DNA of 64,000 nt from an uncultured Chloroflexia bacterium (GTDB lineage: Bacteria > Chloroflexota > Limnocylindria > Limnocylindrales > CSP1-4), in assembly GCA_963840375.1 (NCBI GenBank), contig CAWIYR010000003.1:218299-282298 (forward strand), read 5' to 3'. Below, piece after piece: positions 1 to 47,123 of the stretch (position 1 is its first letter; every line of letters begins with the position of its first letter). The position numbers and the translations under genes were made by a program. The notes under the pieces were generated by a model. It did not search any database. It was not told where the DNA came from and saw nothing but the letters and a program-made list of their open reading frames with translations.

Positions 1-684
1 ATGGACGGCAATCGACGCTGGGCCACCGCTGAAGGCTATGCGCCCGGGATCGGCCACCGGCGGGGCGCCGAGAAGGCGCTCGAGCTCATCGACTGGTGCG
101 CCGAGCTCGGCATCCGCGAGGTCACCCTGTGGGCCCTCTCGATCGAGAACCTCGAGCGACCGGCGGACGAGGTCGGGGCGATCGCCGACGTGGCTGCCGA
201 CGCCATCTCGGCGATCACCGAGGGCCGGCGCCGGACCCGCCTCCCGATCCATCTCCGGGTCATCGGTCGGCGCGACCTGCTGCCCGAGAGCCTCGCGTCG
301 GTGGTCGACCGGTCGGCCGCACTCTCGAGGGACGACGGCTCGATCTCGGTCACGATCGCCCTGGCCTACTCGGGCCGCGACGAGCTCCTCGAGGCGTTCC
401 GATCGACGGTCCGGCAGGCCGTGGCCGCGGGCGTTCCGGCGGACCGCCTGGCCGACCAGCTGACCGCCGAGGACCTGGCGGCGCACCTGTACACCCAGGG
501 CTCGAGCGACCCGGACCTGATCATCCGGACCTCGGGCGAGGTGCGTCTCTCGGGCTTCCTGCCCTGGCAGAGCGTCTACAGCGAGTACCACTTCTGCGAG
601 GCCTACTGGCCGGCCTTCCGCGAGATCGACTTCCTCCGGGCGATCCGGACCTACCAGCTCCGCGCCCGCCGCTTCGGTCGATAG
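1..684 (+). CDS. uppS: Undecaprenyl-diphosphate synthase (cis-prenyltransferase), 5' end truncated by the window edge
   Basis: The DGNRRWA motif and the ...IRTSGE.RLSGFLPWQ... core are characteristic of UppS. The ORF runs to a TAG at 682-684. Confidence 0.9.
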   Translation: MDGNRRWATAEGYAPGIGHRRGAEKALELIDWCAELGIREVTLWALSIENLERPADEVGAIADVAADAISAITEGRRRTRLPIHLRVIGRRDLLPESLASVVDRSAALSRDDGSISVTIALAYSGRDELLEAFRSTVRQAVAAGVPADRLADQLTAEDLAAHLYTQGSSDPDLIIRTSGEVRLSGFLPWQSVYSEYHFCEAYWPAFREIDFLRAIRTYQLRARRFGR

Positions 685-773: not shown

Positions 774-1415
774 ATGCCGGAAGGGGACCGGCCCACGACG
801 GGCGGACAGGGTCTGTACCGGCTGAAGCCGGCCTCGCAGCGGCTCGTCGAGCCCTTGGCCGACGGCCTTGCCCGGCGAAGGGTCTCACCGGACCTCATCT
901 CGGCCGCGGCCGTCGTGACCGCCGCCATCGGCGGAGCCTGCCTGGCCGGCTCGACCGCGATGCCGAGCCTGCTCCTCGTCGTCCCGTTCCTGGCGGCCGC
1001 CCGGCTGATCCTCAACCTCCTCGACGGGATGGTCGCCCGACGGACCGGCACCGCTCGCCCGATGGGCGAGGTCTGGAACGAGGTCGGCGACCGCCTCGGG
1101 GACATCGTCTTCATCGGCGCCCTGGCGCTCGTCCCCGAGGTGGGGCCCGGGCTCGCCCTGGGGGCCGCCATGGCCGCCGTCCTCGCCAGCTACGCCGGGC
1201 TGGCGACCCGGGCGGCCGGCGGTCGCCGCCTGTACGGGGGCGTCCTCTCCAAGCCCGGTCGGATGATCGTCCTGGCGGTCGCCGCCCCGCTCGCATTCCT
1301 GGCCGGCGATCCGCGGATCCTCGCCGTGGCCGCCGCGATCCTGCTGGTCGGCGGGGTCGTCACGCTCCTCCAGCGGCTTCGAACCGCGCTGCACGAGCTC
1401 GGTCATGCCGGCTGA
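774..1415 (+). CDS. CDP-alcohol phosphatidyltransferase family protein
   Basis: ATG at 774 is preceded by GGGAGG. The DG(x)2AR...G...G(x)3D(x)3D motif (DGMVARRTG...GEVWNEVGDRLGD) sits in a multi-TM protein, and the stop overlaps the start of the next gene. Confidence 0.8.
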   Translation: MPEGDRPTTGGQGLYRLKPASQRLVEPLADGLARRRVSPDLISAAAVVTAAIGGACLAGSTAMPSLLLVVPFLAAARLILNLLDGMVARRTGTARPMGEVWNEVGDRLGDIVFIGALALVPEVGPGLALGAAMAAVLASYAGLATRAAGGRRLYGGVLSKPGRMIVLAVAAPLAFLAGDPRILAVAAAILLVGGVVTLLQRLRTALHELGHAG

Positions 1416-2340
1416 CCTGATCGTCGACCCGCGGACCGTCCCCGGCGCCGATTACGCCGCCGGCGCGATCCTCGTCCTGCTCGGCGTGACCCTGATCAGC
1501 GTGCTCGTCGCGGGCGGTCTCGGCCGCGGCGGCGCGAGCCCGGGCACGCTCCTGAAGCGCTGGGTGACCTGGGCGGTCCTCGCGCCGCTGTGGTGGCTGG
1601 CCGTCTTCTGCGGGCCGCTCCCGGTCGCGGTGGTCGTGACGATCTTCGCCGTGGTCGGCCTGCTCGAGTTCGCCCGGCTGACCGACCTGCCCGAGGCACA
1701 TCGCCGGCTGCTGCTCGGAGCGGCGCTCCTGTCCGGGGTCCTCAGCCTGTTCGGGTCGACGGCGCTCCTCGCGGCCGTCCCGATCCTCCTCCTGGCCGGG
1801 ATGCTCCTGCCGGTCCTCTTCCCCGACATCCGGTCGGCGGTCCGGCACCTCGCCTTCGGAGCCCTGGCCTTCGGGTACCTGCCGCTCCTCCTGGGACACG
1901 CCGTCCTGATCGTCGAGGACCTGACCGGTGGCGCCGGGATCCTCTTCGCGACCGGGGTGGCGGTCGCCTTCTCGGACATCGGGGCGTACGTCGCGGGACG
2001 GACCTTCGGGCGACACCCGCTGGCGCCGACGATCAGCCCGAACAAGACCGTCGAGGGGCTGGCCGGCAACCTGGTCGGAGCCGTGATCGGCTACGCCATC
2101 TTCCTGCCGGTCCTGCCGACCCTGTCGCCCGTCCTGCTGGCCGCCCTGCCGATCGTCGTCGCGCTCGGCGCGGTCTGGGGCGACCTCTTCGAATCGGCCC
2201 TGAAGCGCGAGTTCGGCACGAAGGACACCGGCACCTGGCTGCCCGGCTTCGGCGGCCTCCTCGACCGGATCGATTCGCTGATCCTCGTCGTCCCCCTCAT
2301 CTACTACCTGTTCCGGGCGGCGGGAGTGCTCAAGCCATGA
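1405..2340 (+). CDS. cdsA: Phosphatidate cytidylyltransferase (CDP-diacylglycerol synthase)
   Basis: C-terminal CdsA signature ...KREFGTKDTGTWLPGFGGLLDRIDSLILVVP..., polytopic membrane protein. Confidence 0.85.
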   Translation: MPADLIVDPRTVPGADYAAGAILVLLGVTLISVLVAGGLGRGGASPGTLLKRWVTWAVLAPLWWLAVFCGPLPVAVVVTIFAVVGLLEFARLTDLPEAHRRLLLGAALLSGVLSLFGSTALLAAVPILLLAGMLLPVLFPDIRSAVRHLAFGALAFGYLPLLLGHAVLIVEDLTGGAGILFATGVAVAFSDIGAYVAGRTFGRHPLAPTISPNKTVEGLAGNLVGAVIGYAIFLPVLPTLSPVLLAALPIVVALGAVWGDLFESALKREFGTKDTGTWLPGFGGLLDRIDSLILVVPLIYYLFRAAGVLKP

Positions 2341-5046
2341 GCGAGGAACGGATCCTGGTGGGGCCGCCGGTCCCCGAGTCGCTCCGCGAGCTGACCGGCG
2401 AGACCCTGATCGAGCTCCTCGAGCGGGCGGTCGAACGCGATCCCGACGCCTCGGTCTTCGTGATGCCGCGGGGCCTCCGGCTCGAGCGCTGGACCTACCG
2501 CGACCTCGAACGGAGCAGCCGGCAGGTGGCCGTCACGCTCGCCGGGCGCGGGGTCGGGCCCGGTGCCCGGGTCGCGACCTGGGCGGCCAACGACCCCTGG
2601 CTCGTGGCCGCCTACTTCGCGGTCTGGCGGCTGGGCGGATCGGTGGTCCCGCTGGACCTGCGGATGGCGCCGGACGTCGCGATCCGGATCGGGCGGACCG
2701 TCCGGCCGGCCCTCACCCTGGCCGGCGCAGGCGGTGAGCGTCGAGGACGCGGCAGCGCTCGGCGCGCCGGTCCTGCGGGTCGACGCCGGGACGTTGCTGG
2801 GGACCGCCGGGGCGGACCAGGCTGCGCCCCGCGGGGACGACCCTGGGGCAGGCGCGAAGCCCGTGAGCGCCTCGATCACGGTGGCCCCCGACACGCTCGC
2901 CGAGGTCCTGTTCACGAGCGGGACGACGAGCGACCCGAAGGGCGTGATGCTGACCCACGGCCAGATGATCCACAACGCCCGGACGATCGCCCTCACCGCC
3001 GGGATCCGCCGCGAGCGGGCCCTCGCGCTCATCCCGCTCTCCCACATGTACGGCCAGATCGTGCCCCTCCTGTATGGGCTGCTCACCGGCTCGCAGCTGA
3101 CCTTCCTGCCCGCCCTCACCCCGTCGGCGCTGATGGCGGCGATGCGACGCGACCGGGTCACGGTCATCACCGCGGTGCCCCAGCTGCTCAAGCTCCTCAT
3201 GGACGGGATCGAGGCCGAGGCGAACCGCGAGGGGCGACTGGACCGACTCCGGCAGATCCGCCGGATCGCCCTCGTCCTGCCCATCCCCGTCCGGCGGCTC
3301 CTCTTCCGCTCGGTCCTCGAGCGCTTCGGCGGGGAGCTCCGGACGATCACCTGCGGCGGCGCGGCCCTTTCGGCCGACCTCCAGCTCGCCTGGGAGGCGC
3401 TCGGGATCGTCATCGTCCAGGGCTACGGCGCGACCGAGTGCGCCACGATCGCCGGTCACACCCGGACCGCCCGCCGGGCCGGGACCGTCGGGCCACCGCT
3501 GGCCGGGATGGAGGTCCGGATCGGGTCGGACGGCGAGCTCATCGCCCGGGGGCCCAACGTCATGCTCGGCTACTGGGACAAGCCCGAGCAGACCGCCGAG
3601 GTCATCGTCGACGGCTGGGCACATTCCGGCGACGCCGCCGAGATCGACCCCCATGGCGACCTCATCATCCACGGCCGCACCCGGGACCGGATCGCCCTGC
3701 CGAACGGTCTGAAGGTCTACCCCGAGGACGTCGAGGCGGCGATCGTCGAGGCCGGCTCCGTCCGGGCCGCCGTGGTCTTCGAGGCGAGCCCGGGTCGACT
3801 CGCCGCGGTCCTCCTGCCGGCCGATCCCGCTGCGGCGGACGCCGACCTCGACGGCGCGGTCGAGCGCGCGAACCACGCCCTCTCGCCCCACCAGCGGGTG
3901 CGACGCTGGGTCCGCTGGCCGGACCCCGAGCTGCCGCGGACGCACACCCTCAAGGTTCGCCGGGCCGAGGTGCTGGCCTGGTACTCGGCCGATGCCGGCA
4001 CCACCGGGTCCACGACGACACCGGAGACCGAGGCGACCGACGAGCGGGCGAGCCCCGGAGCGTCCGGCGGCGGCGCCGGTCCCGGACGGCGCTCCGGGTC
4101 GTCCCCGACCGCCGACGGATCGAGGGTCGTCCCGACCTCCGCCGAGGCCGTGCTTCCGGCACTCATCGACCTGGTCGCCCACGTCGTCGAGGCTGGTGGG
4201 CACCCGAGCTCCCCGATCGGGCCGACGACCACCCTCGAGGCCCTCGGCTTCGACTCCCTCGGCCGGGTCGGGCTGGCGATCCAGATCGAGGATCGCTTCG
4301 GCTCGTCGCTCGATGACTCGGACATCGCGGGCGCCGAGGATATCGCCGGGCTCGCCCATGTCATCGTGGCGCGACGCGATGCCGCCCCGCCCCCGGAGCC
4401 ACCCCGCTGGGCGCACACTCCGCCGGCGAAGACGGTCCGGCGCTGGCTCGACCGGCTTGTCACCGGCCCGGTCGTCGCGATGATCGCCCGCCCCCGGGTC
4501 GACGGGCTGGAGCACCTCGCCGGGCTCGACGGCCCGTTCCTGCTCTGCCCGAACCACGCCAGCCACCTCGACGCGCCGACGCTCCGGTCTGTCCTGCCGG
4601 CCGCGGTGCGCGACCGGACCGCGATCGCGGCCGCCGCCGACTACTTCTTCGCCGGCGGCCTCCTGGGACCCGCCGTCGCGCTGGCGACCGGGGCGTTCCC
4701 GTTCGGCCGGACCGAGCACGTCCGCTCGTCGCTGGAGCGGGTCGGGTCGTATGTCGACGCCGGCTGGAACGTCATCGTCTTCCCGGAGGGCACCCGCTCG
4801 ACGACCGGCCGGCTCGGGCCGATGAAGGCCGGGATCGGCCTGCTCGCCACACAGCTCGGCGTGCCGGTCGTGCCGATCGGGATCCGCGGCGCCGACCGGA
4901 TCCTGCCGAAGGGCGCCACCCTGCCGCGGTGGCGGGGGCGGGTCGGCGTCCGGATCGGCGAGCCGCTGACCTTCGAGCCCGACTGCCCGGTGCCCGAAGC
5001 GACCGCCCGGATCGAGGCGGCGATCCGGGGTCTCGTCGGGGCTTGA
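2337..5046 (+). CDS. Fused fatty-acyl-AMP ligase/acyl-CoA synthetase, carrier (PP-binding) domain and lysophospholipid acyltransferase (PlsC-like); interrupted by one +1 frameshift near 2722-2735
   Basis: The N-terminus (MSEERILVGPP...VVPLDLRMAP...RPALTLAG) reads in frame 0 from 2337; sense then continues in frame 1 (AQAVSVEDAAALG...LFTSGTTSDPKGVMLTH...). The product has an AMP-binding core, a GFDSL phosphopantetheine-attachment motif, and NHASHLD (HX4D) plus FPEGTRS acyltransferase motifs. Confidence 0.7.
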
Positions 5047-5047
5047 G

Positions 5048-6382
5048 ATGGCGCTCCGGGCGCTCTCGAACGCGGAGTACGTCGCGGACGTCGTCGGCGC
5101 CGCCCTGGCCTACCCCGCCTACCGGCGTCGGGAATCCTGGTCGACCGATCGGCTCCGGGCGTGGCAACTCCGTCGGGTCCGGTCGCTGGTCGACCGGGCC
5201 TACGCCTCGGTACCCGTCTACCGGGAGCGCTACGGTGCAGCGGGCTACCACCCGGGCGACATCCGGACCTGGGATGACTTCGCTCGCCTGCCGACCATCA
5301 CGAAGGTGGATCTCGTCGGCGCGTACCCGGAGCGGTCGGTGGCGGCCGACACCCCGCTGGCCCGCTGCCTGATCTCGACGAGCTCCGGGTCGACCGGTCG
5401 GATGATGGAGATCCCCCACCGAGCCGACCGGCTCTGGCCCTATGTCCTGGTCACCGAGCGCCTGTTCCGACGCCTGGCCGGGCGCTACCCACCGAGCTGG
5501 CGGCAGGCCTACATCTACACCTCGCCCTATCCGGTCCGTGGCTCGCTCGGGCTCTACCCGACGACATTCATCCCGACCGCGGACGACCCGGCGCCGATGC
5601 TCGACGCGCTGCGGCGCTGCCGGCCCCGGCTCCTGGCGGTCTATCCGACCGTCCTGCGCGACCTCCTGGCCGCCGACGCCGCGACGATGCGGGCCCTCGG
5701 GCTGCAGGCCGTCGCCGTCTCGAGCGAGCACTCGACGGCCGAGGAGCGTCGCGGTTGGACCGAGCTGCTGGGCTGCCCGGTCGGCGACCAGTACAGCAGC
5801 GAGGAGCTCGCCTACATCGCGGCCGAGTGCGTGGCGGGGACCTACCACCTCGTCGAGGACCTGACCCTCGTCGAGATCCTCGACCCCGACGCCGATCGAC
5901 CGGTCGACGGGATCGGCGAGGTCGTCGGGACGGAGCTCCACAACCGGACGATGCCGTTCATCCGCTACCGCCAGGGCGACCTCGCCCGGGTCGAGATGGG
6001 GACCTGCCCCTGCCGTCCGACGGCCGGTCCGGTCCGCCGGCTGACCGAGCTCGCCGGGCGAGCCAACGACGGCTTCATCCTGGCTGGCGGGCGGACGCTG
6101 TCGCCGGGCTTCCTCCTCGACGCCTGCTACCGGGCGATCCTGCCCCGACCGGCCGAGGTGGCGGCCTACCGGCTGGTCCAGACGGCGCCGGATCGGGCCG
6201 TCCTGGAGGTCGTCCCGGGCCCGACCTGGGACGAGGCGAGCGCCGGGCGGCTCGGCGCGGCGCTGGCCGCCGAGCTCCCGCTCGACCTTCGGGGCGACGT
6301 CCGGGTCGTCGAGCGGCTCGACCGCGCCGAGGCCGGCAAGCGGGCGACGATCGTCCGCCATCGGTCGCTCAGCGCAGCGTGA
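5048..6382 (+). CDS. Adenylate-forming enzyme of the phenylacetate-CoA ligase / coenzyme F390 synthetase (PaaK/CapK-like) family
   Basis: P-loop-like STSSGSTGRMMEIPH motif and overall PaaK-like layout; start codon lies 1 nt after the previous stop, suggesting translational coupling. Confidence 0.75.
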   Translation: MALRALSNAEYVADVVGAALAYPAYRRRESWSTDRLRAWQLRRVRSLVDRAYASVPVYRERYGAAGYHPGDIRTWDDFARLPTITKVDLVGAYPERSVAADTPLARCLISTSSGSTGRMMEIPHRADRLWPYVLVTERLFRRLAGRYPPSWRQAYIYTSPYPVRGSLGLYPTTFIPTADDPAPMLDALRRCRPRLLAVYPTVLRDLLAADAATMRALGLQAVAVSSEHSTAEERRGWTELLGCPVGDQYSSEELAYIAAECVAGTYHLVEDLTLVEILDPDADRPVDGIGEVVGTELHNRTMPFIRYRQGDLARVEMGTCPCRPTAGPVRRLTELAGRANDGFILAGGRTLSPGFLLDACYRAILPRPAEVAAYRLVQTAPDRAVLEVVPGPTWDEASAGRLGAALAAELPLDLRGDVRVVERLDRAEAGKRATIVRHRSLSAA

Positions 6383-6827
6383 AGTAGGCGCCGTAGATGA
6401 CGACCATGAGCCCCACGTACCCTGCCATGACCGCCCGCGGGTGGCGGCCGATCGGACGCCGGAAGACGGTCCCCACGACCCAGGCCACCGCGGCCGAGAG
6501 CCCGACCCGTTCGAGCCGGTTCAGGGCGACCATCAGCAGGACGCCCCCGAGCGGCTGGCCGAGGAGCGCCGCCTCGTGGATGTAGAGCTTGACCGGGAGA
6601 CCCTGGAGGGGGCCGTTCAGGAACGCCCCGAGCCCCTGACCGCCGAGCTCGCCCGACGCGGTCGCCAGATCGACCGGGCGGATCCCCGGGAGGGCCGCGA
6701 TGGCCTCGCCGAGGACGGGCCAAACCGGGGTGAGCCACCACAGGACGGTCGCGCCGACGAGCGCACCGGCGACCGTCGCCAGGAGGACCTTGAGCGTCCG
6801 CCCGGGAGCGAACAGGGCCACGAACAT
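6369..6827 (-). CDS. DedA/YqaA-like (SNARE-associated) membrane protein; N-terminus unresolved (homology continues upstream to about 6935 without an in-frame start codon)
   Basis: C-terminal part of minus ORF 6369..7730: ...LLFLVPDLWVMFVALFAPGRTLKV...GIRPVDLATASGELGG... is YqaA-like. The only in-frame canonical start is the ATG at 6827; the first TM and ~10 hydrophobic residues before the VP motif lie upstream of it. Confidence 0.45.
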   Translation of the reverse strand: MFVALFAPGRTLKVLLATVAGALVGATVLWWLTPVWPVLGEAIAALPGIRPVDLATASGELGGQGLGAFLNGPLQGLPVKLYIHEAALLGQPLGGVLLMVALNRLERVGLSAAVAWVVGTVFRRPIGRHPRAVMAGYVGLMVVIYGAYFTLR

Positions 6828-6920
6828 GACCCACAGGTCGGGGACCAGGAAGAGGAGCGACGCCTCGGCGGCGCCCCAGCCGGCCGCGACCCAGAGCGCA
6901 CCGGTGGAGGCGGCGATCCG

Positions 6921-8205
6921 GTGGATGGTCGAAGGGGAGCGCGGCTCGGCGTCGCGGCCCGTGGTCGCGCCGGGTGGCGCGTTCGCGTCGGAAGCAGGCG
7001 CCGCCGCGGACTGCGTCTGCGCGCCCGCCTCACCGCCCTGCGTTCGGGGATCGTCTACAGCCGGGTCTGGGAGGACGACCGGGTCGACCGGCTGGCCCTC
7101 GCGATCGAGCCCGGCGACCGGGTCCTCGTCGTCGCCTCGGCCGGCGACGTCGCCCTTCATGCCGCGCTCGACGGCGCCCGAGAGGTCATCGCGGTCGACC
7201 GGAACCCCGCCCAACTCCACCTCCTGGAGCTCAAGCTCGCCGCACTTCGGACGCTCGACGCAGATGCGTTCTGGACACTCTTCGGCGAAGGCCGCTCGCC
7301 GGCCGGCGCCGCCTGGTACGACCGGCTGCGACCGGCGCTGCCGCCTCCGAGCCGGCGGTACTGGGACCGGCACGCCGGGCTGTTCGACCTGGGACTGATG
7401 CACCAGTCCCGGGTGGAGCTGGGCCTCCTCCTCCTCGGTCCGCTCGTTCGTGGGATCGCGGGCCGGCGGGACTTCGCCCGACTGATCGAGGCGCCCGATG
7501 TCCGGGCCCAGGGACAACTCTACGCCCGCCGCTCGGCGCGACGCCTGTGGAATCCGGTCACCCGCCGGGCGATCCGGTGGAGCGGGCTGCTGGCCCTGCT
7601 CACGATGAACCGCGAGCAGTGGCGCCTGGTCGGTCGACGACCGCTTCCTCGACGGCTTCGAGGAGCGGGTCGCCTCCCTCGTTGACCGCGAGCTCGTCCG
7701 CGAGAACCCGTTCTGGTGTCGCGTCCTCACCGGGCAGCCGTGCGAGCAGGCTCACGAAGTCGCCTATCTGGCGCCCGGGGCGTTCGAACGTCTCGGCGGC
7801 TGCGCCCCGGCGATCCGGCCCCGGCTCGGCCCGCTCGTGATGATCCTCCGGGGCGAACCCGACGCGAGCCTCGACGCGATCGATCTCCTCGACGTCCCCG
7901 ATTGGCTGCAGCCGCCGGCCCGGCGTGAGCTCTGGGGCGAGGTCGGCCGGGTCCTCCGGCCGGGCGGGCGGTGCCTGACCAGGTCGATCTCGCGACGGCC
8001 GGACCTCCCCGGCCCGGGTCGCGGCCTGGTGCTGGACGGGCCGCTGTCGAGGCAGCTCACCGCGATGGAGCGGACGGCCGTCTACGGCTCGGTGACCGTC
8101 CTCCGGAGGGCCGCGGTCGAGTCAGGCCCGGCCGGCCGGCCGGTCGCCGACGCGCCGGTCAGCGTCGGGCCGATCAGCGCCGGGCCGGTCGCCACAGCGC
8201 GGTGA
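6921..8205 (+). CDS. DUF3419 / BtaA-like protein (family of S-adenosylmethionine:diacylglycerol 3-amino-3-carboxypropyl transferase); frameshift near 7609-7627, start uncertain
   Basis: IVYSRVWEDD, VLVVASAGDVALHAAL, VIAVDRNPAQLHLLELKLAALRTLD and FWTLFG read in frame 0; ENPFWCRVLTG...DAIDLLDVPDWL... continues in frame 1 to the stop at 8205. The nearest in-frame canonical start is the GTG at 6921. Confidence 0.55.
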
Positions 8206-9012: not shown

Positions 9013-9356
9013 TCGGGGGTTGACTGCGGCCGGAGCGGGAGGTATCGTAGGAGGGTCGCTCGCCCGCGAGGGAACGCGCCGGAACGACCGCTCGGGACCG
9101 CTCGGATCGCGGCTCCAGGGTCGACCCGGGACCCGCCCGGAACGACGATCACGGAGGACCGGTCGCAGCTACGCCCGACGGGCACCACCAGAGCGAGTGG
9201 ACCCTCGACCCGGGCACGGACAAGCCTCCGGACCCAGTCCATCGACCCACCGGCATCGTGGGTCCCAGCCGCCGCATCAAGCCCCCGTCAGCCCCACCGA
9301 CCCCGGCGGAGACCGGGGACCCGCACCCGCCCAGCGCGTTGGAGGAGAGAGCAACG

Positions 9357-12300
9357 ATGGCCCGAGCCGCCGTCCAGGGAGTCCCGGTGATGGAACAGCC
9401 CAAGTCCACCGGTCGGAAGACGCCGCACCGCCACCACGGCCCGTACGGGGTGAGCTTCAACGGCCAGAACCCGGACGGCAGCCCCGCCAGGGGCCTGACC
9501 TTCGAGCGGCGCTGGACCCGGCCGGGCGTCCATCCCTACGACGAGATCCGCTGGGAGACCCGGACCGCGACCATCGGCAACGAGTCGGGCAAGCTCGTCT
9601 TCGAGCAGAAGGACGTCGAGGTCCCGGAGTTCTGGAGCCAGCTGGCCACCAACGTCGTCGTCAGCAAGTACTTCCGCGGCCACCTCGGGCACGCCGGAGC
9701 GCGAGACGAGCGTCCGCCAGCTCATCGACCGGGTCGTCAACACGATCGCGGCCTGGGCCGAGACCCAGCGCTACTTCGCGACCGACGCGGACCTGCGAGA
9801 CGTTCAAGGCGGAGCTCACCCACCTCCTGGTCCACCAGAAGATGAGCTTCAACTCGCCGGTCTGGTTCAACGTGGGGATCGAGCAGAAGCCGCAGTGCTC
9901 GGCCTGCTTCATCAACTCGGTCCAGGACTCGATGTCCTCGCATCATGGACCTGGCCAAGACCGAGGCGATGCTCTTCAAGTTCGGCTCGGGCGCCGGCTC
10001 CAACCTCTCCCCCATCCGCTCCAGCCGGGAGAAGATGTCGGGCGGCGGCACGGCCAGCGGCCCGGTCAGCTTCATGAAGGGCTACGACGCCTTCGCCGGC
10101 GTGGTGAAGTCGGGCGGCAAGACCCGGCGCGCCGCCAAGATGGTCATCCTCGACGTCGACCACCCGGACATCCTCGACTTCATCGACTCGAAGAAGCACG
10201 AGGAGGAGAAGGCCTGGGCGCTCATCGAGATGGGCTACGACCCCAGCTTCACCGGCGAGGCCTACGGCTCGGTCTTCTTCCAGAACGCGAACCACAGCGT
10301 CCGGGTGACCGACGAGTTCATGCAGTCGGTGGTCGACGACCGCGACTGGACCACCCACGCCGTCGTCGACAAGAAGCCGATGGGCACCTACAAGGCGCCG
10401 CGACATCTTCCGCCGGATGGCCGACGCCGCCCACCTCTGCGGCGACCCCGGGATCCAGTACGACACGCACGATCAACGACTGGCACACCTCGCGCGAACA
10501 CGGACCGGATCTACGCCACGAACCCGTGCTCCGAGTACATGTTCCTCAACGACACGGCCTGCAACCTGGCCAGCCTCAACCTCATGAAGTTCGTCCGCGA
10601 GGACGGTGAGTTCGACGTCGAGGCCTACCGCTACGCCGCCGGCTGACGATCACCGCCCAGGAGATCCTCGTCGACAACGCGTGCTACCCGACGCCGCGGA
10701 TCGAGGAGAACTCCCATCGCTTCCGGCCGCTCGGGCTGGGCTACGCCAACCTCGGCGCGCTGCTCATGAGCCGCGGCCTGGCCTACGACAGCGACGAGGG
10801 CCGGGACTACGCCGCCGCCCTGACCGCGATCATGCACGGCGAGGCGTATCGCCAGAGCGCGATCATCGCCCGCGACCACGGCGGCCCGTTCGCCGAGTAC
10901 AAGGTCAACGAGCAGCCGTTCCTGCGGGTCATCGGCAAGCACCGCGACGCGGCCTACCGGATCCCGGCCGACCAGGCGTCCCGGCCGACCTGCTGGCGGC
11001 CGCCCGGGTCGTCTAGGACGAGGCCCTCGAGCTGGGGCCGGCAGCACGGCTACCGCAACGCCCAGGTCACCGTCCTGGCCCCGACCGGCACGATCGCCTT
11101 CATGATGGACTGCGACACCACCGGCATCGAGCCGGACATCGCCCTCATCAAGTACAAGAAGCTCGTCGGCGAGGGCTTCCTCAAGATCGTCAACCAGACG
11201 GTCCCGGCAGCGCTCAAGAAGCTCGGCTACGCGCCCGACCAGGTCGAGGAGATCCTCGCCTACGTCAACGAGCGCGAGACGATCGAGGGCGCCCCGCACG
11301 TCAAGCCCGAGCACCTGTCGGTCTTCGACTGCGCGTTCAAGCCGGTCAACGGCGAGCGGTCCATCCACTACATGGGCCACGTCCGGATGATGGCCGCCGT
11401 CCAGCCGTTCCTCTCGGGCGCGATCAGCAAGACCGTCAACATGCCCGAGGCCGCCACCACCGAGGAGATCGAGCAGGTCTACCTCGAGGGCTGGAAGCTG
11501 GGTCTCAAGGCGATCGCGATCTACCGCGACGGCTCCAAGCGCAGCCAGCCGCTGAGCACGGGCAAGAAGAAGGACGACGAGGCCGACGCCGGGGTCGTCG
11601 CCGAGCTCCGGGCCCAGCTCGCCGCGGCCCAGGCCGAGGCGAAGAAGCCCCACCGGCATCGGCTGCCGACCGAGCGGACCGCGATCACCCACAAGTTCGA
11701 CATCGCCGGCCACGAGGGCTACATCACGGTCGGGCTCTACCCGGACGGCCAGCCCGGCGAGATCTTCCTGAAGATGGCCAAGGAGGGCTCGACCGTGTCG
11801 GGCCTGATGGACACCTTCGCGACCTCGGTCAGCCTCGCCCTCCAGTACGGCGTGCCGCTGCGCGACCTGGTCAACAAGTTCGCCCACGTCCGGTTCGAGC
11901 CGAGCGGCTTCACCGGCAACCAGGAGATCCCGATCGCGAAGTCGATCGTCGACTACATCTTCCGCTGGATGGGCAGCCGCTTCCTGCCGGCCGACGAGAA
12001 GGCCCAGATCGGGCTGATCGACCGTGCCGCGGTGACGGACGCCCCGGCCGCCGGCGGGTTCGGTGGCGGCTTCGGTGGGTTCGCCTCACCGGCCGCTGAC
12101 GCCCGACGGCCGAGGAGGGCCCGTCGGCCATCGACGAGGCGGTCGAGCCGCCGTCCGACCGAACCGCGGGCGACCGCGGTCGCCGCCGAGCCGGCGCCGG
12201 TCGCCAAGGCGGCCCTGCCGGTCGTCGAGTCGGCTGCCACCAACGGTCACGCGAACGGCAACGGGAACGGCAAGGCCAACGGGAACGGCAACGGTCACGC

Positions 12301-12454
12301 CCTGAGCGCGATCACCGCCTCGCTCGGGACGACGAAGGTCTCCTTCACCGTCCAGGAGGACGCCCCCAGCTGCGCCGAGTGCGGCTCGATCATGGTCCGC
12401 AACGGCAGCTGCTACAAGTGCCTCAACTGCGGCAGCACGAGCGGCTGCAGCTGA
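9357..12454 (+). pseudogene. nrdJ: Adenosylcobalamin-dependent ribonucleoside-diphosphate reductase (class II RNR) NrdJ; as written it is broken by at least 8 frameshifts, probably sequencing or assembly indels rather than decay
   Basis: Strong SD (GGAGGAGAGAG) before the ATG at 9357. Conserved NrdJ sense (FEQKDVEVPEFWSQLATNVVVSKYFRG; ETFKAELTHLLVHQKMSFNSPVWFNVG; GSGAGSNLSPIRSSREKMSGGGTASGPVSFMKGYD; NPCSEYMFLNDTACNLASLNL; LAPTGTIAFMMDCDTTGIEPD; AIAIYRDGSKRSQPL; C-terminal CxxC...CxxC tail) jumps between all three forward frames at roughly 9695, 9800, 9940, 10400-10500 (two), 10640 and 10975-11035 (two). Confidence 0.85.
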
Positions 12455-12474
12455 ACCCCTCCCCGAACCAGCGA

Positions 12475-12504
12475 CCGAAGGCCGGGCGATGAGCCCGGCC
12501 TTCG
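12475..12504. terminator. GC-rich hairpin (11-bp perfect stem, 5-nt loop) between convergent nrdJ and the response regulator gene; likely bidirectional intrinsic terminator with no U-tract
   Basis: gaaggccgggc-gatga-gcccggccttc. Confidence 0.5.
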
Positions 12505-12570
12505 ACGTCGTAGCGGCCCGAGGTCTCGCGAGGCCACCCGGATCCCCGTCGGGGCCGACCCCCAGCCGAG

Positions 12571-13203
12571 CTAGAGCTGCGGCTCGAGCCAGCCTTTCTC
12601 TCGAGCGATCCGGGCAGCCTCCGCGCGGTTGCGGGCTCCGACCTTCTGGATGGCCGCCGACAGGTGGTTGCGGACCGTCCCCTCGGTGAGCGACATCGCG
12701 CCGGCGATCTCGGCGATCGTGCCGCGCTCACTGGACACGGCCAGGACCTCCCGTTCGCGGTCCGACAGCGGGTTGTCGCCGTCGGCGAGGGCATCGAGCG
12801 CGAGTCCAGGGTCGACCACCCGCTGACCCGCCGCGACCCGTCGGATCGCGACCGCCAGGTCCCCTGCCGGGGCGTCCTTGAGCACGAACCCGGTCGCGCC
12901 CGCCTCCATCGCCTGGCGAAGGTAGCCCGGCCGACCGAACGTCGTCATGATGAGGACACGACAGCCCGGGACCGCCCGACGCAGCGCCGCCGCGGCCGAC
13001 AGGCCGTCGAGCCCGGGCATCTCGATATCGAGGACGGCGACATCGGGTCGGCCCTCGAGGGCCGCTGGTACGACCTCGTCGCCGCGAGCGCACTGGGCCA
13101 CCACCTCGAGGTCGGGCTCCATCGACAGGAGGGCGGCGACGGCGCCGCGGACCATCGCCTGGTCCTCGGCGATCAGGACCCGGATCGACGACTGCCGACT
13201 CAT
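12571..13203 (-). CDS. Two-component response regulator, NarL/FixJ (LuxR-type HTH) family
   Basis: REC domain (IRVLIAEDQAMVR...DVAVLDIEMPGLDG) plus C-terminal LuxR HTH (LSDREREVLAVSSERGTIAEIAGAMSLTEGTVRNHL). Confidence 0.9.
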   Translation of the reverse strand: MSRQSSIRVLIAEDQAMVRGAVAALLSMEPDLEVVAQCARGDEVVPAALEGRPDVAVLDIEMPGLDGLSAAAALRRAVPGCRVLIMTTFGRPGYLRQAMEAGATGFVLKDAPAGDLAVAIRRVAAGQRVVDPGLALDALADGDNPLSDREREVLAVSSERGTIAEIAGAMSLTEGTVRNHLSAAIQKVGARNRAEAARIAREKGWLEPQL

Positions 13204-14327
13204 CCCAGGGCCCCTTCACCGTCGGACACCGGTACCCTCGCCAGCAGCCGGTAGCCACCCGTCGGGAGGGGGCCGGCCTCGAGACGGCCGCCGACGAGCT
13301 CGAGCCGCTCATGCAGACCGCGCAGCCCGGATCCGCCGTCCGCATCCCCATTCGCCGCTCGGGCCGGAGCGCCAGGTCCGCCGGCTCCCGGGCCATCGTC
13401 GACGACCTCGAGCTCGACGGACCCGCCACGCCGCTCGGTCCGGATCGATCCGTGCCGTGCCGCGCTGTGGCGGACCACGTTCGTGACGGCCTCGCGGACG
13501 GCCCAGGCGAGGATGGCATCCTCCGGGGCCGGCAACGTCCCGGCACGATTCTCGATGCGCGGCTCGATGCCCGCGGCCTCCAGGGCCCGCCGAGCGCCCG
13601 CGAGCTCGGCGTCGAGGGTCGGCTGGTGATAACCGCGGACGGTCTCGCGTACCGAGGCGAGCGACTCGCGGGCGACCTGCTCGATGTCGGCGATCTCGGC
13701 CCGGGCCCGCTCGGGGTCGCCGGGGAGCAGCCGGCCGGCGAGCTCGCTCTTGATCGCGATGAGCGACAGGCTGTGGCCCAGCATGTCGTGGAGGTCGCGG
13801 GCGATCCGGTCGCGCTCCTCGGCGACCGCGGCGGCGGCCAGCTCTCGTCGGGCGGCATGCAGCTGGAGGTTCGTCCGGCGAAGCGCAGTGGCCGAGAAGA
13901 CCGTGAGCCCGATCGTGGAGATCGAGACCCCCTGGAGGAAGGCCCCGGCTGCGTCGCCGGTCGACTGCTGGAAGCTCAGCCCGCCAAGGATCCCCGCGAC
14001 GACGATGAGGACGATCGCGCGCCGATCCGGCTGGAGCAGGCTGGCTGCCGTCGACGCGTAGTAGAAGAGGACGATCCACCCGGCCGAAGGGTCGTGGAGG
14101 GACGCCCCCGTCGCGATCAGGATGAGCGCCACGTCGGCGAGCGCCGCGATGGGGCTCGATCGCCAGCGGTGCCCGGCAGCGCGGCGGGCGAGTCCGCCGA
14201 GCAGGCCGGCGAAGATCGCGGCGGCCGCCAGGACCAGGATCGCGTCGACCGGCTCCGTCGGGGTGGAGAGGACGCGGATGACCGGGTAGGCGATGAACAG
14301 GAGGCCCGCGAACCGGAAGAACGGCAT
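13200..14327 (-). CDS. Sensor histidine kinase (HisKA_3/NarX-DesK type) with an N-terminal multi-TM sensor
   Basis: ATG at 14327 (MPFFRFAGLLFIAY...); H-box ERDRIARDLHDMLGHSLS; HATPase_c GxGxG region; 4-bp ATGA overlap with the downstream response regulator. Confidence 0.85.
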   Translation of the reverse strand: MPFFRFAGLLFIAYPVIRVLSTPTEPVDAILVLAAAAIFAGLLGGLARRAAGHRWRSSPIAALADVALILIATGASLHDPSAGWIVLFYYASTAASLLQPDRRAIVLIVVAGILGGLSFQQSTGDAAGAFLQGVSISTIGLTVFSATALRRTNLQLHAARRELAAAAVAEERDRIARDLHDMLGHSLSLIAIKSELAGRLLPGDPERARAEIADIEQVARESLASVRETVRGYHQPTLDAELAGARRALEAAGIEPRIENRAGTLPAPEDAILAWAVREAVTNVVRHSAARHGSIRTERRGGSVELEVVDDGPGAGGPGAPARAANGDADGGSGLRGLHERLELVGGRLEAGPLPTGGYRLLARVPVSDGEGALG

Positions 14328-14355
14328 CCCGCTGCCCGCCCGGGGCAGCGCCTCG

Positions 14356-15147
14356 TCAGGCACCGGAGCCCGCCTCCGAGGTCCGGTACCGCCAGACGAC
14401 GAGCGCGCCGAAGATCGCGGCGTACGCGCCGAGGACCGCCAGGTCGATCGGGGACGGCGGCTGGCCGGTGACCGCTGCCCGGCCGAGGTCGGCCAGCCGG
14501 AACGACGGCAGCATGCGACCAATGGTAGCCAACGCGTCCGGGAACGACGAGAGCGGTGCCCATAGTCCGCCGAGGATCGACAGCGCGAAGAAGCAGATCA
14601 TCATCGCGCCCTGGGCGCTGTCGGCGTCGAAGACGTAGCCGATGAGCAGGCCCAGGGCCGCGAACGGCAGCGAGCCGAGCACGAGCGAGCAGAAGACCTG
14701 GACCCAGTCGGCGGCGGACAGGCGGACGTTGTCGACGAGGAAGCCGGCCAGCAGGACCGCGGCGACCGCGGGGACCGTGACGACGTAGGCCACCAACAGC
14801 TTGGCCGACACGTAGCCGACCGCCGACAGGGGGGTCACGCGGAGCTGGCGGGCCCAGCCCGAGGCGCGCTCCTGGGCGATGATCACCGCGCCGCCGAGGG
14901 CCGCCGCGATGGACGCATAGGCCGCCATCGAGACCATGAAGTAGGTTCCCCAGGTGGTCCCGTCGATGGGCGCGTCGGCCCGGGCGGCCCCCTGCGAGAG
15001 CACGCCCGTGTAGAGCAGATAGAAGACGGTGGGGAAGGCCACTGCGAACAGCAGGTAGCGCCGGTTCCGGAGGGCTCGCCGGAATTCGAGGCGGACGAAC
15101 GCCGCGAACGGTGGCAGCGCGCCGGGACGGTCGACACTGGCGATCAT
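14356..15147 (-). CDS. ABC-2 type transporter permease
   Basis: Six predicted TM segments and typical ABC-2 permease composition; 4-bp overlap with the upstream ATPase gene. Confidence 0.8.
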   Translation of the reverse strand: MIASVDRPGALPPFAAFVRLEFRRALRNRRYLLFAVAFPTVFYLLYTGVLSQGAARADAPIDGTTWGTYFMVSMAAYASIAAALGGAVIIAQERASGWARQLRVTPLSAVGYVSAKLLVAYVVTVPAVAAVLLAGFLVDNVRLSAADWVQVFCSLVLGSLPFAALGLLIGYVFDADSAQGAMMICFFALSILGGLWAPLSSFPDALATIGRMLPSFRLADLGRAAVTGQPPSPIDLAVLGAYAAIFGALVVWRYRTSEAGSGA

Positions 15148-16169
15148 CGTTCTCCTCTCTCTGGGTGGTCGCGGTCGGTCAGGGCGAGGAAGGCGTCCTC
15201 GAGTCCGGCGCTCCGGACTTCGAGATCGCGGACGTGGAGGCCGGCGACGTACAGGGCCCGGACGGTCGCGTCGGCGTCGTCGCTGGCCAGCTGCACGGCC
15301 GTCCCGTGGATCTCGACGGCGGTGACGCCGGGGAGCTCGGCCAGGGTCGCGGCATCCGGAGCGCCGGACGTCGCCAGGTCGAACCTGACGGTACGGCCGG
15401 TGACCTGCCCCCGGATCGCCCGGCCGGTCCCGTCGGCGACCACCCGGCCCCGGTCGAGGACGACGACCCGGTCGGCGACCTGGTCGGCCTCCTCCAGATA
15501 GTGGGTCGCGAACAGGATGGTCCGGCCCTCATCGGCCGAGCGCCGCATGTCGGCCCAGAAGGATCGCCGGGTCTCGACGTCCATGGCCACCGTCGGCTCA
15601 TCCAGGAAGACCAGATCCGGGTCGCCCGCGATCGCCAGGGCGAACCGGACGCGTTGCGCCTCACCTCCGGACAGCCGATCCGCGGTCCGGTCGACGAGTC
15701 CGCCGAGTCCGGTCCGCTCCAGGAGCGCCTCCCGAGCGAGCGGGTTCGGATACAGGCGACGGGCGAAGTCGACGAGCTCGCCGACCCGGACGTTGGCGGG
15801 CAGCGCCGCCTGCTGGAGCATCGCCCCGACGCGGCCGCTCGCGAGCGCGGCCCGGGGCGCCAGTCCGAGCGTCGTGACCCGACCTTCGGTCGGCTCGAGC
15901 AGACCGAGCATGAGTCCGATCGCGGTGGACTTGCCGGCACCGTTCGGGCCGAGCAGGGCGACGGTCTCGCCCGACGCGATCGACAGGTCGAGCGAATCGA
16001 GCGCGGTGACCTCGCCGAACCGGCGGGTCACCCCGCTGAACCCGATCGCGCCGGAGGCGATGGCCTGCTGGGTCCTCGCGGCGACCGGCATCGGCGATGG
16101 AAGGGTGGAACCCTGCATGAGCGGTACCTCGTGGGGGCGAGTGGTCATGCCAGGAGTCTCGCCCTCCAC
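15144..16169 (-). CDS. ABC transporter ATP-binding protein
   Basis: Walker A GPNGAGKST, signature LSGGEAQRV, Walker B LVFLDEPT; the start is either 16169 or the MTTRP ATG at 16148. Confidence 0.85.
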   Translation of the reverse strand: MEGETPGMTTRPHEVPLMQGSTLPSPMPVAARTQQAIASGAIGFSGVTRRFGEVTALDSLDLSIASGETVALLGPNGAGKSTAIGLMLGLLEPTEGRVTTLGLAPRAALASGRVGAMLQQAALPANVRVGELVDFARRLYPNPLAREALLERTGLGGLVDRTADRLSGGEAQRVRFALAIAGDPDLVFLDEPTVAMDVETRRSFWADMRRSADEGRTILFATHYLEEADQVADRVVVLDRGRVVADGTGRAIRGQVTGRTVRFDLATSGAPDAATLAELPGVTAVEIHGTAVQLASDDADATVRALYVAGLHVRDLEVRSAGLEDAFLALTDRDHPERGER

Positions 16170-16291
16170 CCCCTCGAGTCGAAGTCACGCCCATCCGGAA
16201 CCCGTCGTTACGCCGCCGGATGCGTCGGCGTGACGCGTGTCATGCCGACGCAGGAGGGCGCACCTGCGGCGCGTCGTCGGGTGTCAGCCCG

Positions 16292-45873: not shown

Positions 45874-46518
45874 TCAGACGAGCTTGTGCTCGACAGCGTA
45901 GAGGGCGGCCTGGGTCCGGCTCGTCAGGCCGAGCTTGCCGAGGATGTTGCTCACGTACGTCCTGGCCGTGCCCTCGGCGATCCCCAGCTCGTAGGCGATC
46001 TCCTTGTTGCTGAGACCGCGGGCCACGAGCCGGAGGACGTCGCGCTCGCGCTCGGTGAGCGGCTCGACGGGGTCCGGGGCCGGCTTCGCCCGCATCTTCT
46101 GGGCGAGCAGCCGGGCGACCTGCGGATCGAGGGTCATCTCGCCGGCCGCGGCTGCCCGGACCGCTGCGGCGACCTCCTCGGCAGACGCGTCCTTGAGCAG
46201 GTAGCCGGTGGCGCCCGCCTCGAGCGCGGCGGTGACCTTCTCCTCTTCGATGAAGCTCGTCATCGCGACGACCTCGATCTCGGGGTGCTCGTCCTTGATC
46301 CGGGCGATCGCGGTGACGCCGTCCATGTTCGGCATCAGGAGGTCCATCAGCACGACATCGGGCAGGAGCCGGCGGGCCATCGCCACGCCCTCGCTGCCGT
46401 CGCCGGCCTCGCCGACGACCTCGATATCGTCCTGGAGGTCGAAGAAGAGGCGCAGGCCGCTGCGGACGACCGCGTGGTCGTCCACGAGCAGGATGCGGAT
46501 CCGGACGGGTTCGTTCAC
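45874..46518 (-). CDS. Two-component response regulator, NarL/FixJ (LuxR HTH) family
   Basis: IRILLVDDHAVVRSGL...DVVLMDLLMPNMDG... REC domain plus LuxR HTH (LTERERDVLRLVARGLSNKEIAYELGIAEGTARTYVSNIL). Confidence 0.9.
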   Translation of the reverse strand: MNEPVRIRILLVDDHAVVRSGLRLFFDLQDDIEVVGEAGDGSEGVAMARRLLPDVVLMDLLMPNMDGVTAIARIKDEHPEIEVVAMTSFIEEEKVTAALEAGATGYLLKDASAEEVAAAVRAAAAGEMTLDPQVARLLAQKMRAKPAPDPVEPLTERERDVLRLVARGLSNKEIAYELGIAEGTARTYVSNILGKLGLTSRTQAALYAVEHKLV

Positions 46519-46555
46519 GGACGGACTCCCGGTGGTGGGAACGGCGATATCGAGT

Positions 46556-47017
46556 CTACTGCAGGCCCCGCCGGCCGGGCCCGGCGACCGCGTCCGGGTC
46601 CGGGCGTTCGCGACCGGCCGTCTCGATCGCGGCGATGAGCTCGCCCGGGCCGATCGTCTTCGGCAGGTAGCGATCGGCGCCGGCGTCGAGGGTCAGCGAC
46701 TCGAGCGAGTCCGACCAGGTCAGGACGACGATCCGGGTCCCCGGCCAGCGGGTCCGGACGAGCCCGACGAGCCCGAGTCCGGCGTCGATATCGGGCAGCT
46801 TCGGGTCGATCACGAGGACGTCGGCCGGGGTCGACTCGAGGGCCGCGAGGGCCGCGGCGACGTGGCCGACCGAGGCGCTGAGCTCGAGGCCGTCGGCGAG
46901 CCCGACGAGCGCCGCGATGGCGGCGCGGACCCGGCGGTCGCCGTCGACGACGACGACGCGGACCGGGGGAAGGGCGAGCGAGGCCGGGGCGGCGGGAGGC
47001 GACAGTGGTTCGAGCAT
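46556..47017 (-). CDS. Stand-alone response-regulator receiver (REC) domain protein
   Basis: VRVVVVDGDRRVR...DVLVIDPKLPDIDG...; start at 47017 (or 47083). Confidence 0.7.
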   Translation of the reverse strand: MLEPLSPPAAPASLALPPVRVVVVDGDRRVRAAIAALVGLADGLELSASVGHVAAALAALESTPADVLVIDPKLPDIDAGLGLVGLVRTRWPGTRIVVLTWSDSLESLTLDAGADRYLPKTIGPGELIAAIETAGRERPDPDAVAGPGRRGLQ

Positions 47018-47123
47018 GACTCGATCTTCGTCGGTCACGAGCGCCCCCGCCCATCGCCTGAGGGCGGGATCCGACCTCCACATCCGTCATGGTCGGTCAC
47101 CGCAGGTGGTCGGTCCGCGACCG

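Follow-up and report, generated by a model that had tools for sequence, protein, structure and literature searches.

A Putative Lipid-Modifying DUF3419 Protein of Chloroflexota from a Branch of the BtaA Family without btaB Neighbours

Introduction

BtaA converts diacylglycerol and S-adenosylmethionine (SAM) to diacylglyceryl-homoserine, which is then trimethylated by BtaB, usually encoded in the adjacent gene, to diacylglyceryltrimethylhomoserine (DGTS) (PMC10685587, PMC4796936). The BtaA protein of Rhodobacter (Cereibacter) sphaeroides and other bacteria is given as the first DGTS enzyme by Klug & Benning (2001) and Riekhof et al. (2005), as these are cited in PMC10685587 and PMC4796936, and eukaryotes such as Chlamydomonas, fungi and algae possess BTA1, a bifunctional betaine lipid synthase in which BtaA and BtaB are fused (PMC10685587, PMC6383925). 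Databases name every DUF3419 protein BtaA, i.e., betaine lipid synthase, and phosphorus-sparing remodelling of lipids in soils and waters is inferred from this name. Here we describe a DUF3419 gene in a 64-kb stretch of DNA from an uncultured Chloroflexia bacterium (referred to as the window), for whose branch of the family the BtaA annotation is probably wrong or misleading: the label is doubtful because this branch has different conserved partner genes and no BtaB. The gene probably helps to make a membrane lipid that has not been described so far.

Chloroflexota are an abundant soil phylum, poorly cultured, and little is known of their lipids. The DUF3419/BtaA family itself is known; new here is a BtaB-less branch of it with a conserved set of six lipid genes. 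The literature found on DUF3419 does not cover this clade, and no published account of the gene set was found in it. The set suggests a pathway of six genes, open to testing, that may lead to a novel Chloroflexota lipid bearing an amino acid. Should the product indeed be a further-ligated homoserine lipid, the BtaA family would acquire a second function in which the transferred group is processed differently downstream.

Results and Discussion

A DUF3419 Branch Lacking BtaB

A first-pass annotation, made from the letters of the window, had assigned the gene to the DUF3419/BtaA family. A profile search bears this out at the level of sequence and confirms that the region encodes a protein of this family: with one base removed (see below), the product gives a single match to Pfam PF11899 with E = 5.3e-65 and 220.5 bits (cutoff 28.2), spanning profile positions 8–384 of 385. 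The unrepaired pieces also match in their own right, the N-terminal one (6921–7628) with E = 7.8e-46 over positions 8–206 and the C-terminal one (7624–8202) with E = 6.7e-14 over positions 222–384; since the profile positions left unmatched are exactly filled by the residues between the two matches, no sequence is missing. Every motif named in the annotation is present, from 7056 to 7908 (Table 1). NCBIfam holds no model for the DUF3419 protein.

The same annotation had found no convincing start codon, which we cannot support. The in-frame GTG at 6921 follows a Shine–Dalgarno-like element; it aligns with the GTG GAT GGT (M-D-G) start of the closest homologue (protein P0001, locus L001, our reference for DNA alignment, indels, and substitution rates) as well as with the MDG start of P0002, and it is the sole canonical in-frame start from the upstream gene to the conserved WED motif. 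In the AlphaFold2 model discussed below, the predicted local distance difference test score (pLDDT) is below 50 for residues 1–21 and about 65–71 up to residue 50. The relative P0003 (571 amino acids) carries a spurious N-terminal extension of about 190 amino acids that is read through the opposite-strand gene, and the window open reading frame (ORF) 6441–7685 would be miscalled alike.

In a neighbor-joining tree, the window protein groups with L001, L002, L003, L005, P0002, and P0005–P0022, apart from the btaB-linked sequences, and P0059, a eukaryotic betaine lipid synthase, falls with its DUF3419 domain on the btaB-linked side. The core clade was recovered in 100 of 100 bootstrap replicates, in 71 of 100 when L016 is included, and in 25 of 100 with both L016 and L008. 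True BtaA proteins were represented by proxies, namely synteny with btaB and the BTA1-type P0059, experimentally characterised BtaA sequences standing outside the comparison; a profile search aimed at the latter gave betaproteobacterial proteins from metagenome-assembled genomes (MAGs) only. In a survey of 83 genome loci with the bacterial BtaB of locus L013 as probe, a protein that has the expected methyltransferase Pfam profile, btaB was located immediately 3’ of the DUF3419 gene in 47. No locus of the window clade showed one within 10 kb, nor did the whole 64-kb window yield a match.

Residue conservation was compared at a threshold of at least 85% between 30 sequences of the window clade and 47 of the btaB-linked clade. 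Conserved in both are 36 positions, all of which are present in the window protein, including E51-D52, A74-G75, D93, N95-P96, Q98, W148-D149, D327-W328, and R350/R354/S355. A further 21 positions are fixed differently between the clades: for example, the window clade has D76 in the SAM loop, L159-H160, and P263 where btaB-linked proteins have C, F-Y, and Y, respectively, and V325-P326 in place of H-M beside the invariant D327-W328. The PF11899 score differs as well, with 220 bits for the window protein versus 385 bits for a btaB-linked protein. Judged from these comparisons, the window protein is a member of the family, but not an orthologue of the DGTS-making BtaA, because it falls into a separate clade, lacks btaB, and carries the switched residues. 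Its likeness to BtaA thus consists in the PF11899 match, 29–37% identity with btaB-linked proteins, the 36 common positions, a predicted SAM-binding core, and a context of lipid genes, whereas its clade, its partner genes, the missing btaB, the 21 switched positions, and the lower Pfam score set it apart. The relation to BTA1 is similar: the Klebsormidium protein P0059 has a homologous DUF3419 domain that matches the window protein (E = 4e-19, 30% identity), yet it groups with the btaB-linked clade, and the window protein has neither a fused nor an adjacent methyltransferase domain.

The search for homologues in 185,579 species-representative genomes returned an uncultured Chloroflexia MAG (MFD05942.bin.3.126) with 81% identity and ‘Chloroflexi bacterium GWC2_73_18’ with 46%; the remaining genome relatives share at most 37% identity and belong mostly to Planctomycetota, Verrucomicrobiota, and Proteobacteria. 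By these nearest genomes, the window stems from a high-GC member of the Chloroflexota and not from an actinobacterium. Among 1.84 billion protein representatives clustered at 50% identity, 2144 match at E ≤ 1e-3, about five of them with at least 42% identity. The clade is rare and occurs mainly in high-GC soil Chloroflexota; the GC content of the window is about 73%.

The alternative closest at hand is an ordinary BtaA, whose diacylglyceryl-homoserine would be methylated to DGTS under phosphate limitation by a BtaB whose gene lies at another place in the genome, with the neighbouring genes being unrelated housekeeping genes. The common Pfam family and the 36 shared positions are in line with this, as is the label ‘S-adenosylmethionine-diacylglycerol 3-amino-3-carboxypropyl transferase’ that the JGI attaches to relatives; btaB is also missing next to the gene in some subclades of the BtaA clade, and the PAP2 phosphatase or phospholipase C-type phosphoesterase found beside the gene set in L008 and L093 (see below) could provide diacylglycerol. 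However, the fully supported core clade, the lack of btaB near any of its loci as opposed to its presence in more than half of the loci overall, and the low PF11899 score speak against an ordinary BtaA, as does the partner linkage described in the next section. Taken together, we consider it quite unlikely.

Inside the btaB-linked BtaA clade, whole subclades (Verrucomicrobiota and Pirellula-type Planctomycetota) are without an adjacent btaB, the loci being L007, L009, L010, L012, L017, L018, L026–L028, L033, L034, L039, L040, L045, L047, L049, L052, L054, L057–L059, L062, L063, L066, L069, and L079. The DUF3419 ORF of L018 and L045 is about 805 amino acids long, suggestive of a fusion. Of the metagenome relatives with 24–34% identity (L096–L165), most have neither btaB nor a gene set of the window type. 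Pfam PF11899 is functionally heterogeneous.

Six Genes That Stay Together

The window genes follow one another in the order UppS, CDP-alcohol phosphatidyltransferase, CdsA, a fusion of AMP-dependent ligase, acyl carrier protein (ACP), and PlsC acyltransferase, a PaaK-like enzyme, a small membrane protein (minus strand), DUF3419, a GNAT acetyltransferase (minus strand), and the class II ribonucleotide reductase NrdJ. Six of them, i.e., DUF3419, the PaaK-like enzyme, the membrane protein, ligase/ACP/PlsC, CdsA, and the CDP-alcohol transferase, form the conserved set, while UppS and GNAT are neighbours in the window and L001 only and are not part of its core. The first-pass annotation had rightly pointed to CdsA- and PlsC-type genes next to the DUF3419 gene (Table 1), and had missed the PaaK-like enzyme and the small membrane protein.

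In L001, the closest relative, the gene order is that of the window. L003 and L086 (46% identity to the window DUF3419 protein) have the same six genes with the order kept from the CDP-alcohol transferase to DUF3419. L084 (42%) combines the PaaK-like and DUF3419 genes with the membrane protein and ligase/ACP/PlsC on the opposite strand, and in L092–L094 and L164 (36–42%) the membrane protein, PlsC, CdsA, and CDP-alcohol transferase genes lie downstream on the opposite strand. All six genes are found even in L008, with 33% identity and a GC content of 46%. At least the PaaK-like or the membrane partner is present in about 17 of the 23 informative distinct clade loci. The PaaK-like gene is the partner most tightly linked to the window DUF3419 clade: it adjoins DUF3419 in 14 distinct related loci, with a gap of 0–12 bp in L084/L085, L092, L093, and L094, and the pair of PaaK-like and membrane protein genes lies beside DUF3419 in the window, L001, L003, L008, L084/L085, L086, L088, L092–L095, L097, and L110. 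The ligase/ACP/PlsC, CdsA, and CDP-alcohol transferase genes occur together within about 6 kb in the window (774–5046), L001, L003, L008, and L086, and as partial sets in L084, L088, L092–L094, L097, and L164; CdsA co-occurs with DUF3419 in L001, L003, L008, L086, L092, L093, L094, and L164, and the CDP-alcohol transferase in eight loci.

That the linkage has outlasted rearrangement and deep divergence argues strongly for a shared pathway, and chance or housekeeping adjacency, as the ordinary-BtaA explanation would have it, does not account for its persistence down to 33% identity. The lipid head-group-modifying role proposed in the first-pass annotation therefore gains support from distant relatives in so far as the link to lipid genes is concerned, but not in the sense of an ordinary betaine-lipid BtaA.

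Several loci hold additional genes. A second PaaK-like paralogue lies directly 3’ of DUF3419 in L003 (10946–12310), L086 (11100–12482), L002, L005, L088, and L091; it shares about 34% identity with the first, with 50–55% identity among the copies, and in the window and L001 this place is taken by the opposite-strand GNAT gene. L003 (748–1587) and L086 (2553–3368) encode a class-I methyltransferase some 2 kb upstream of the set. As a BtaB it was rejected, its similarity being generic (33% over about 100 amino acids) and a window counterpart missing; in the two organisms concerned, it may N-methylate the product. In L008, the DUF3419, CdsA, and CDP-alcohol transferase genes are interspersed with or flanked by genes (11058–16268) for a trans-polyprenyl synthase, a membrane protein of the Caroten_synth family, and a PAP2 phosphatase. 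With UppS in the window and L001, these polyprenyl genes, and the match of the CDP-alcohol transferase to archaetidylinositol-phosphate synthase, a link to isoprenoid lipids appears possible on sequence grounds.

Reading Frame and Intactness of the Gene

In the sequence as given, the gene is not one uninterrupted reading frame. Alignment with L001 places a single extra G at about 7632, where the window reads CTGGTCGGTCGAC (context CTGGTC[G]GTCGAC) and L001 reads CTCGTC-GTCGCC. The first-pass annotation had thus correctly recognized a frameshift, yet had located it at 7610–7627. Three indels relative to L001 lie inside the gene, and the frame is broken by the extra G only; uncorrected, it terminates at codon 254. 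P0001, which is 81% identical, is encoded by an intact single ORF of 384 amino acids on a 668-kb contig of an uncultured Chloroflexia MAG. The ratio of nonsynonymous to synonymous substitution rates (dN/dS) relative to L001 is 0.17 before the frameshift and, in the corrected frame, 0.41 after it, which indicates purifying selection on both halves, and no more stops or out-of-frame indels occur across the 190 codons 3’ of the frameshift.

The annotation’s suspicion of a wider indel problem proved justified. The ligase/ACP/PlsC gene has a +1 indel relative to L001 at about 2728 (the intact L001 gene encodes 912 amino acids), and NrdJ (9258–12454) has several ±1 indels between 9690 and 11045 (intact L001 gene, 1039 amino acids). 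These ±1 indels lie mostly outside homopolymer runs, and the assembly appears error-prone across the region of the two genes. Relatives are affected too: the L001 UppS gene likewise carries indels, and P0023 (ENA, 319 amino acids, other assembly) has frameshifts at different sites that leave only its middle third in frame.

Could the extra G be real? The gene would then be a true pseudogene with only a truncated product of 254 amino acids that lacks the C-terminal half. The frameshift is, after all, present in the given sequence, and the public protein library holds the fragment 7840–8202 as a separately called protein of 121 amino acids (P0184), which means that the gene caller of the source assembly met the same break. 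Continued selection past the frameshift over 190 otherwise undisturbed codons is at odds with a pseudogene, as are the ±1 indels in the presumably essential NrdJ and the acyltransferase gene and the assembly-type frameshifts in relatives (L001 UppS, P0023), so that we regard a pseudogene as improbable. Based on the selection acting on both halves, the indels in NrdJ and the acyltransferase gene, and the intact homologue with 81% identity, we consider the extra G to be an assembly artefact with good confidence. A programmed frameshift was ruled out, as CTGGTCGGTCGAC contains no slippery sequence and the homologues are all contiguous ORFs.

Predicted Fold and a Proposed Pathway

The AlphaFold2 model (mean pLDDT 86.6, predicted template modelling score 0.84) has a Rossmann-type core of alternating strands and helices that is split by a long helical insertion. 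The top PDB neighbours retrieved by Foldseek are all class-I SAM-dependent transferases (probability 1.0), aligned over 130–190 columns with TM-scores of at most 0.31. Spermidine synthases, i.e., aminopropyl transferases, are prominent among them and, together with a weak Pfam TRM5/TYW2 match on the window sequence (E = 0.0019), make up the likeness to Tyw2 and spermidine synthases; there is, however, no family relationship to either at the level of sequence, and the TM-scores are low. The window protein retains the family signature, consisting of WED, the SAG loop, D93-x-N95-P96-x-Q98, W-D-R, D-W, and R..R-S. Because these signature residues are retained, the enzyme most likely binds SAM and, like BtaA, transfers a 3-amino-3-carboxypropyl group onto the hydroxyl of a lipid. 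In this reaction, the hydroxyl would attack the gamma-carbon of SAM, whereby the 3-amino-3-carboxypropyl (homoserine) moiety would be moved and methylthioadenosine released.

It is also conceivable that the protein transfers no aminocarboxypropyl group at all, but acts as a SAM-dependent methyltransferase or other alkyl transferase on a lipid or head-group intermediate of the linked genes. Most of the PDB neighbours of its class-I fold are methyltransferases, including phosphatidylethanolamine N-methyltransferase, some clade members have weak Methyltransf_11/25 matches, and the clade has switched residues both within the SAM loop (D76 instead of C) and next to D327-W328. On the other hand, precisely the residues that distinguish DUF3419 from ordinary methyltransferases are retained (WED, SAG instead of GxGxG, D-x-N-P-x-Q, and D-W), and no Pfam methyltransferase family scores above threshold on the window protein. 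We therefore think such an activity rather unlikely.

For aminocarboxypropyl transfer followed by further processing, the diphthamide pathway offers a precedent: transfer of the 3-amino-3-carboxypropyl group is followed by methylation and then by ATP-dependent amidation. By analogy with this ATP-dependent last step, the PaaK-like enzyme suggests itself as the one that would process the transferred amino acid. We envisage that CdsA, the CDP-alcohol transferase, and the self-loading ligase/ACP/PlsC protein would make a dedicated glycerophospholipid or its diacylglycerol backbone, to which the DUF3419 enzyme would attach the amino-acid moiety. The PaaK-like enzyme would then use ATP to activate the new carboxylate or to join an acid to the new amine, replacing N-methylation by BtaB, and the small membrane protein may handle the lipid within the membrane. 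A PAP2 phosphatase in L008 and a phospholipase C-type phosphoesterase in L093 beside the gene set support a diacylglycerol route.

That the gene is intact in the organism and encodes a SAM-dependent enzyme of a rare BtaB-less sister clade, acting with five partners in a lipid pathway, is a combined reading for and against which we find the scales about level. The more specific proposal, according to which the six genes lead to an undescribed membrane lipid of soil Chloroflexota, a glycerolipid or phospholipid whose SAM-derived homoserine is further ligated (amidated or N-acylated) by the PaaK-like enzyme rather than trimethylated, is tentative and somewhat doubtful. Several points count against the combined reading. 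L008 is only weakly joined to the clade (25/100), and the 21 switched positions may, as far as sequence can tell, mean a different chemistry or acceptor. There is no structure of any DUF3419 protein and no characterised clade member, and methyl and aminocarboxypropyl transfer are therefore indistinguishable here. The gene set is not universal, being absent from L130, L159, L160, L135, L142, and the P0017 contig, and CdsA and the CDP-alcohol transferase could be mere housekeeping phospholipid genes. A btaB gene could sit elsewhere in the genome, as the ordinary-BtaA explanation requires, and the gene caller of the source assembly itself split the gene.

Features of the Window

Table 1. Coordinates of the DUF3419 gene, its parts, and neighbouring genes in the window.
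Feature	Coordinates	Strand	Evidence or remark
UppS-type cis-prenyltransferase	1..684	+	truncated by window start; TIGR00055 uppS E = 1.9e-56, above cutoff
CDP-alcohol phosphatidyltransferase, (archaetidyl)inositol-phosphate-synthase type	774..1415	+	PF01066 E = 0.008, 17 bits (cutoff 22)
CdsA-type phosphatidate cytidylyltransferase	1405..2340	+	PF01148 E = 6e-52
AMP-dependent ligase/acyl carrier/PlsC fusion	2337..5046	+	AMP-binding E = 3e-47; PP-binding E = 3e-9; Acyltransferase PF01553 E = 8.6e-22
PaaK-like adenylate-forming enzyme (phenylacetate-CoA-ligase/F390-synthetase type)	5048..6382	+	intact adenylation signature
Small multi-pass membrane protein	6372..~6938	-	divergent from DUF3419 gene; orthologues beside DUF3419 in 13 loci
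GGAGG, Shine–Dalgarno-like	6906..6910	+	10 nt 5’ of GTG start; read from sequence
DUF3419 gene	6921-8205	+	427-amino-acid product once one base is removed
DUF3419 N-terminal part, codons 1-237	6921..7631	+	begins with GTG 6921
In-frame Arg-rich insertion relative to L001, 72 bp (24 codons)	6949..7020	+	disordered N-terminus; pairwise DNA alignment
YSRVWED	7056-7076	+	N-terminal part
VVASAGD, SAM loop	7128-7148	+	N-terminal part
AVDRNPAQLHLLELK	7191-7235	+	N-terminal part
Single extra G, frameshift	7632 (ambiguous ~7628-7633, within GTCGGTCG)	+	alignment to intact L001
DUF3419 C-terminal part	7633..8205	+	stop codon 8203-8205
RENPFW	7699-7716	+	C-terminal part
LTGQP	7726-7740	+	C-terminal part
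LLDVPDWL	7885-7908	+	C-terminal part
In-frame insertion relative to L001, 57 bp	8112-8168	+	DNA alignment

Beyond the Pfam match, the best NCBIfam models for the CDP-alcohol transferase are archaetidylinositol-phosphate synthase (E = 4.8e-23) and phosphatidylinositol phosphate (PIP) synthase (E = 4.5e-16), both below cutoff. Intact homologues of the ligase/ACP/PlsC fusion have 912–923 amino acids. Its combination of an AMP-dependent ligase with a PlsC acyltransferase resembles Aas- and ElbD-type proteins, and NCBIfam acyl-[ACP]--phospholipid O-acyltransferase models match with E = 3e-42, far below cutoff; it differs from both in the domain order ligase–ACP–PlsC, with its own carrier domain and no reductase domain, and stands outside the curated Aas families. 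Its ATG overlaps the TGA of CdsA (ATGA, 2337–2340), which suggests translational coupling. The PaaK-like enzyme matches NCBIfam models for DVU_1553-family ligase and PaaK with E = 8e-34 to 1e-28, all below cutoff, and PaaK structures in the PDB down to E = 6e-26.

The membrane protein has invariant residues that include W21, E25, and V32-P33-D34 (W..AE......VPD). One of its 13 orthologues (L008) gives a VTT/DedA match (E = 7e-5, below cutoff), which hints at a role in lipid handling. No canonical start lies 5’ of the W21/E25/VPD motif in the window, and a start early enough for the full-length protein would reach into the DUF3419 gene at its 5’ end; either a further indel or a non-canonical start is involved. 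The public calls for L001 (152 amino acids) and L003 (161 amino acids) begin past the motif, and those for L008 and L084 have about 190 amino acids.

Rfam and tRNA scans of the window found nothing, and the 20 largest remaining window ORFs contained no further lipid or methyltransferase genes. A histidine kinase of 1445 amino acids (45877–51461, minus strand) with six GAF domains, one PAS domain, and HisKA_3/HATPase_c adjoins a LuxR-type response regulator, and a second LuxR-type regulator is encoded at 12571–13203 on the minus strand.

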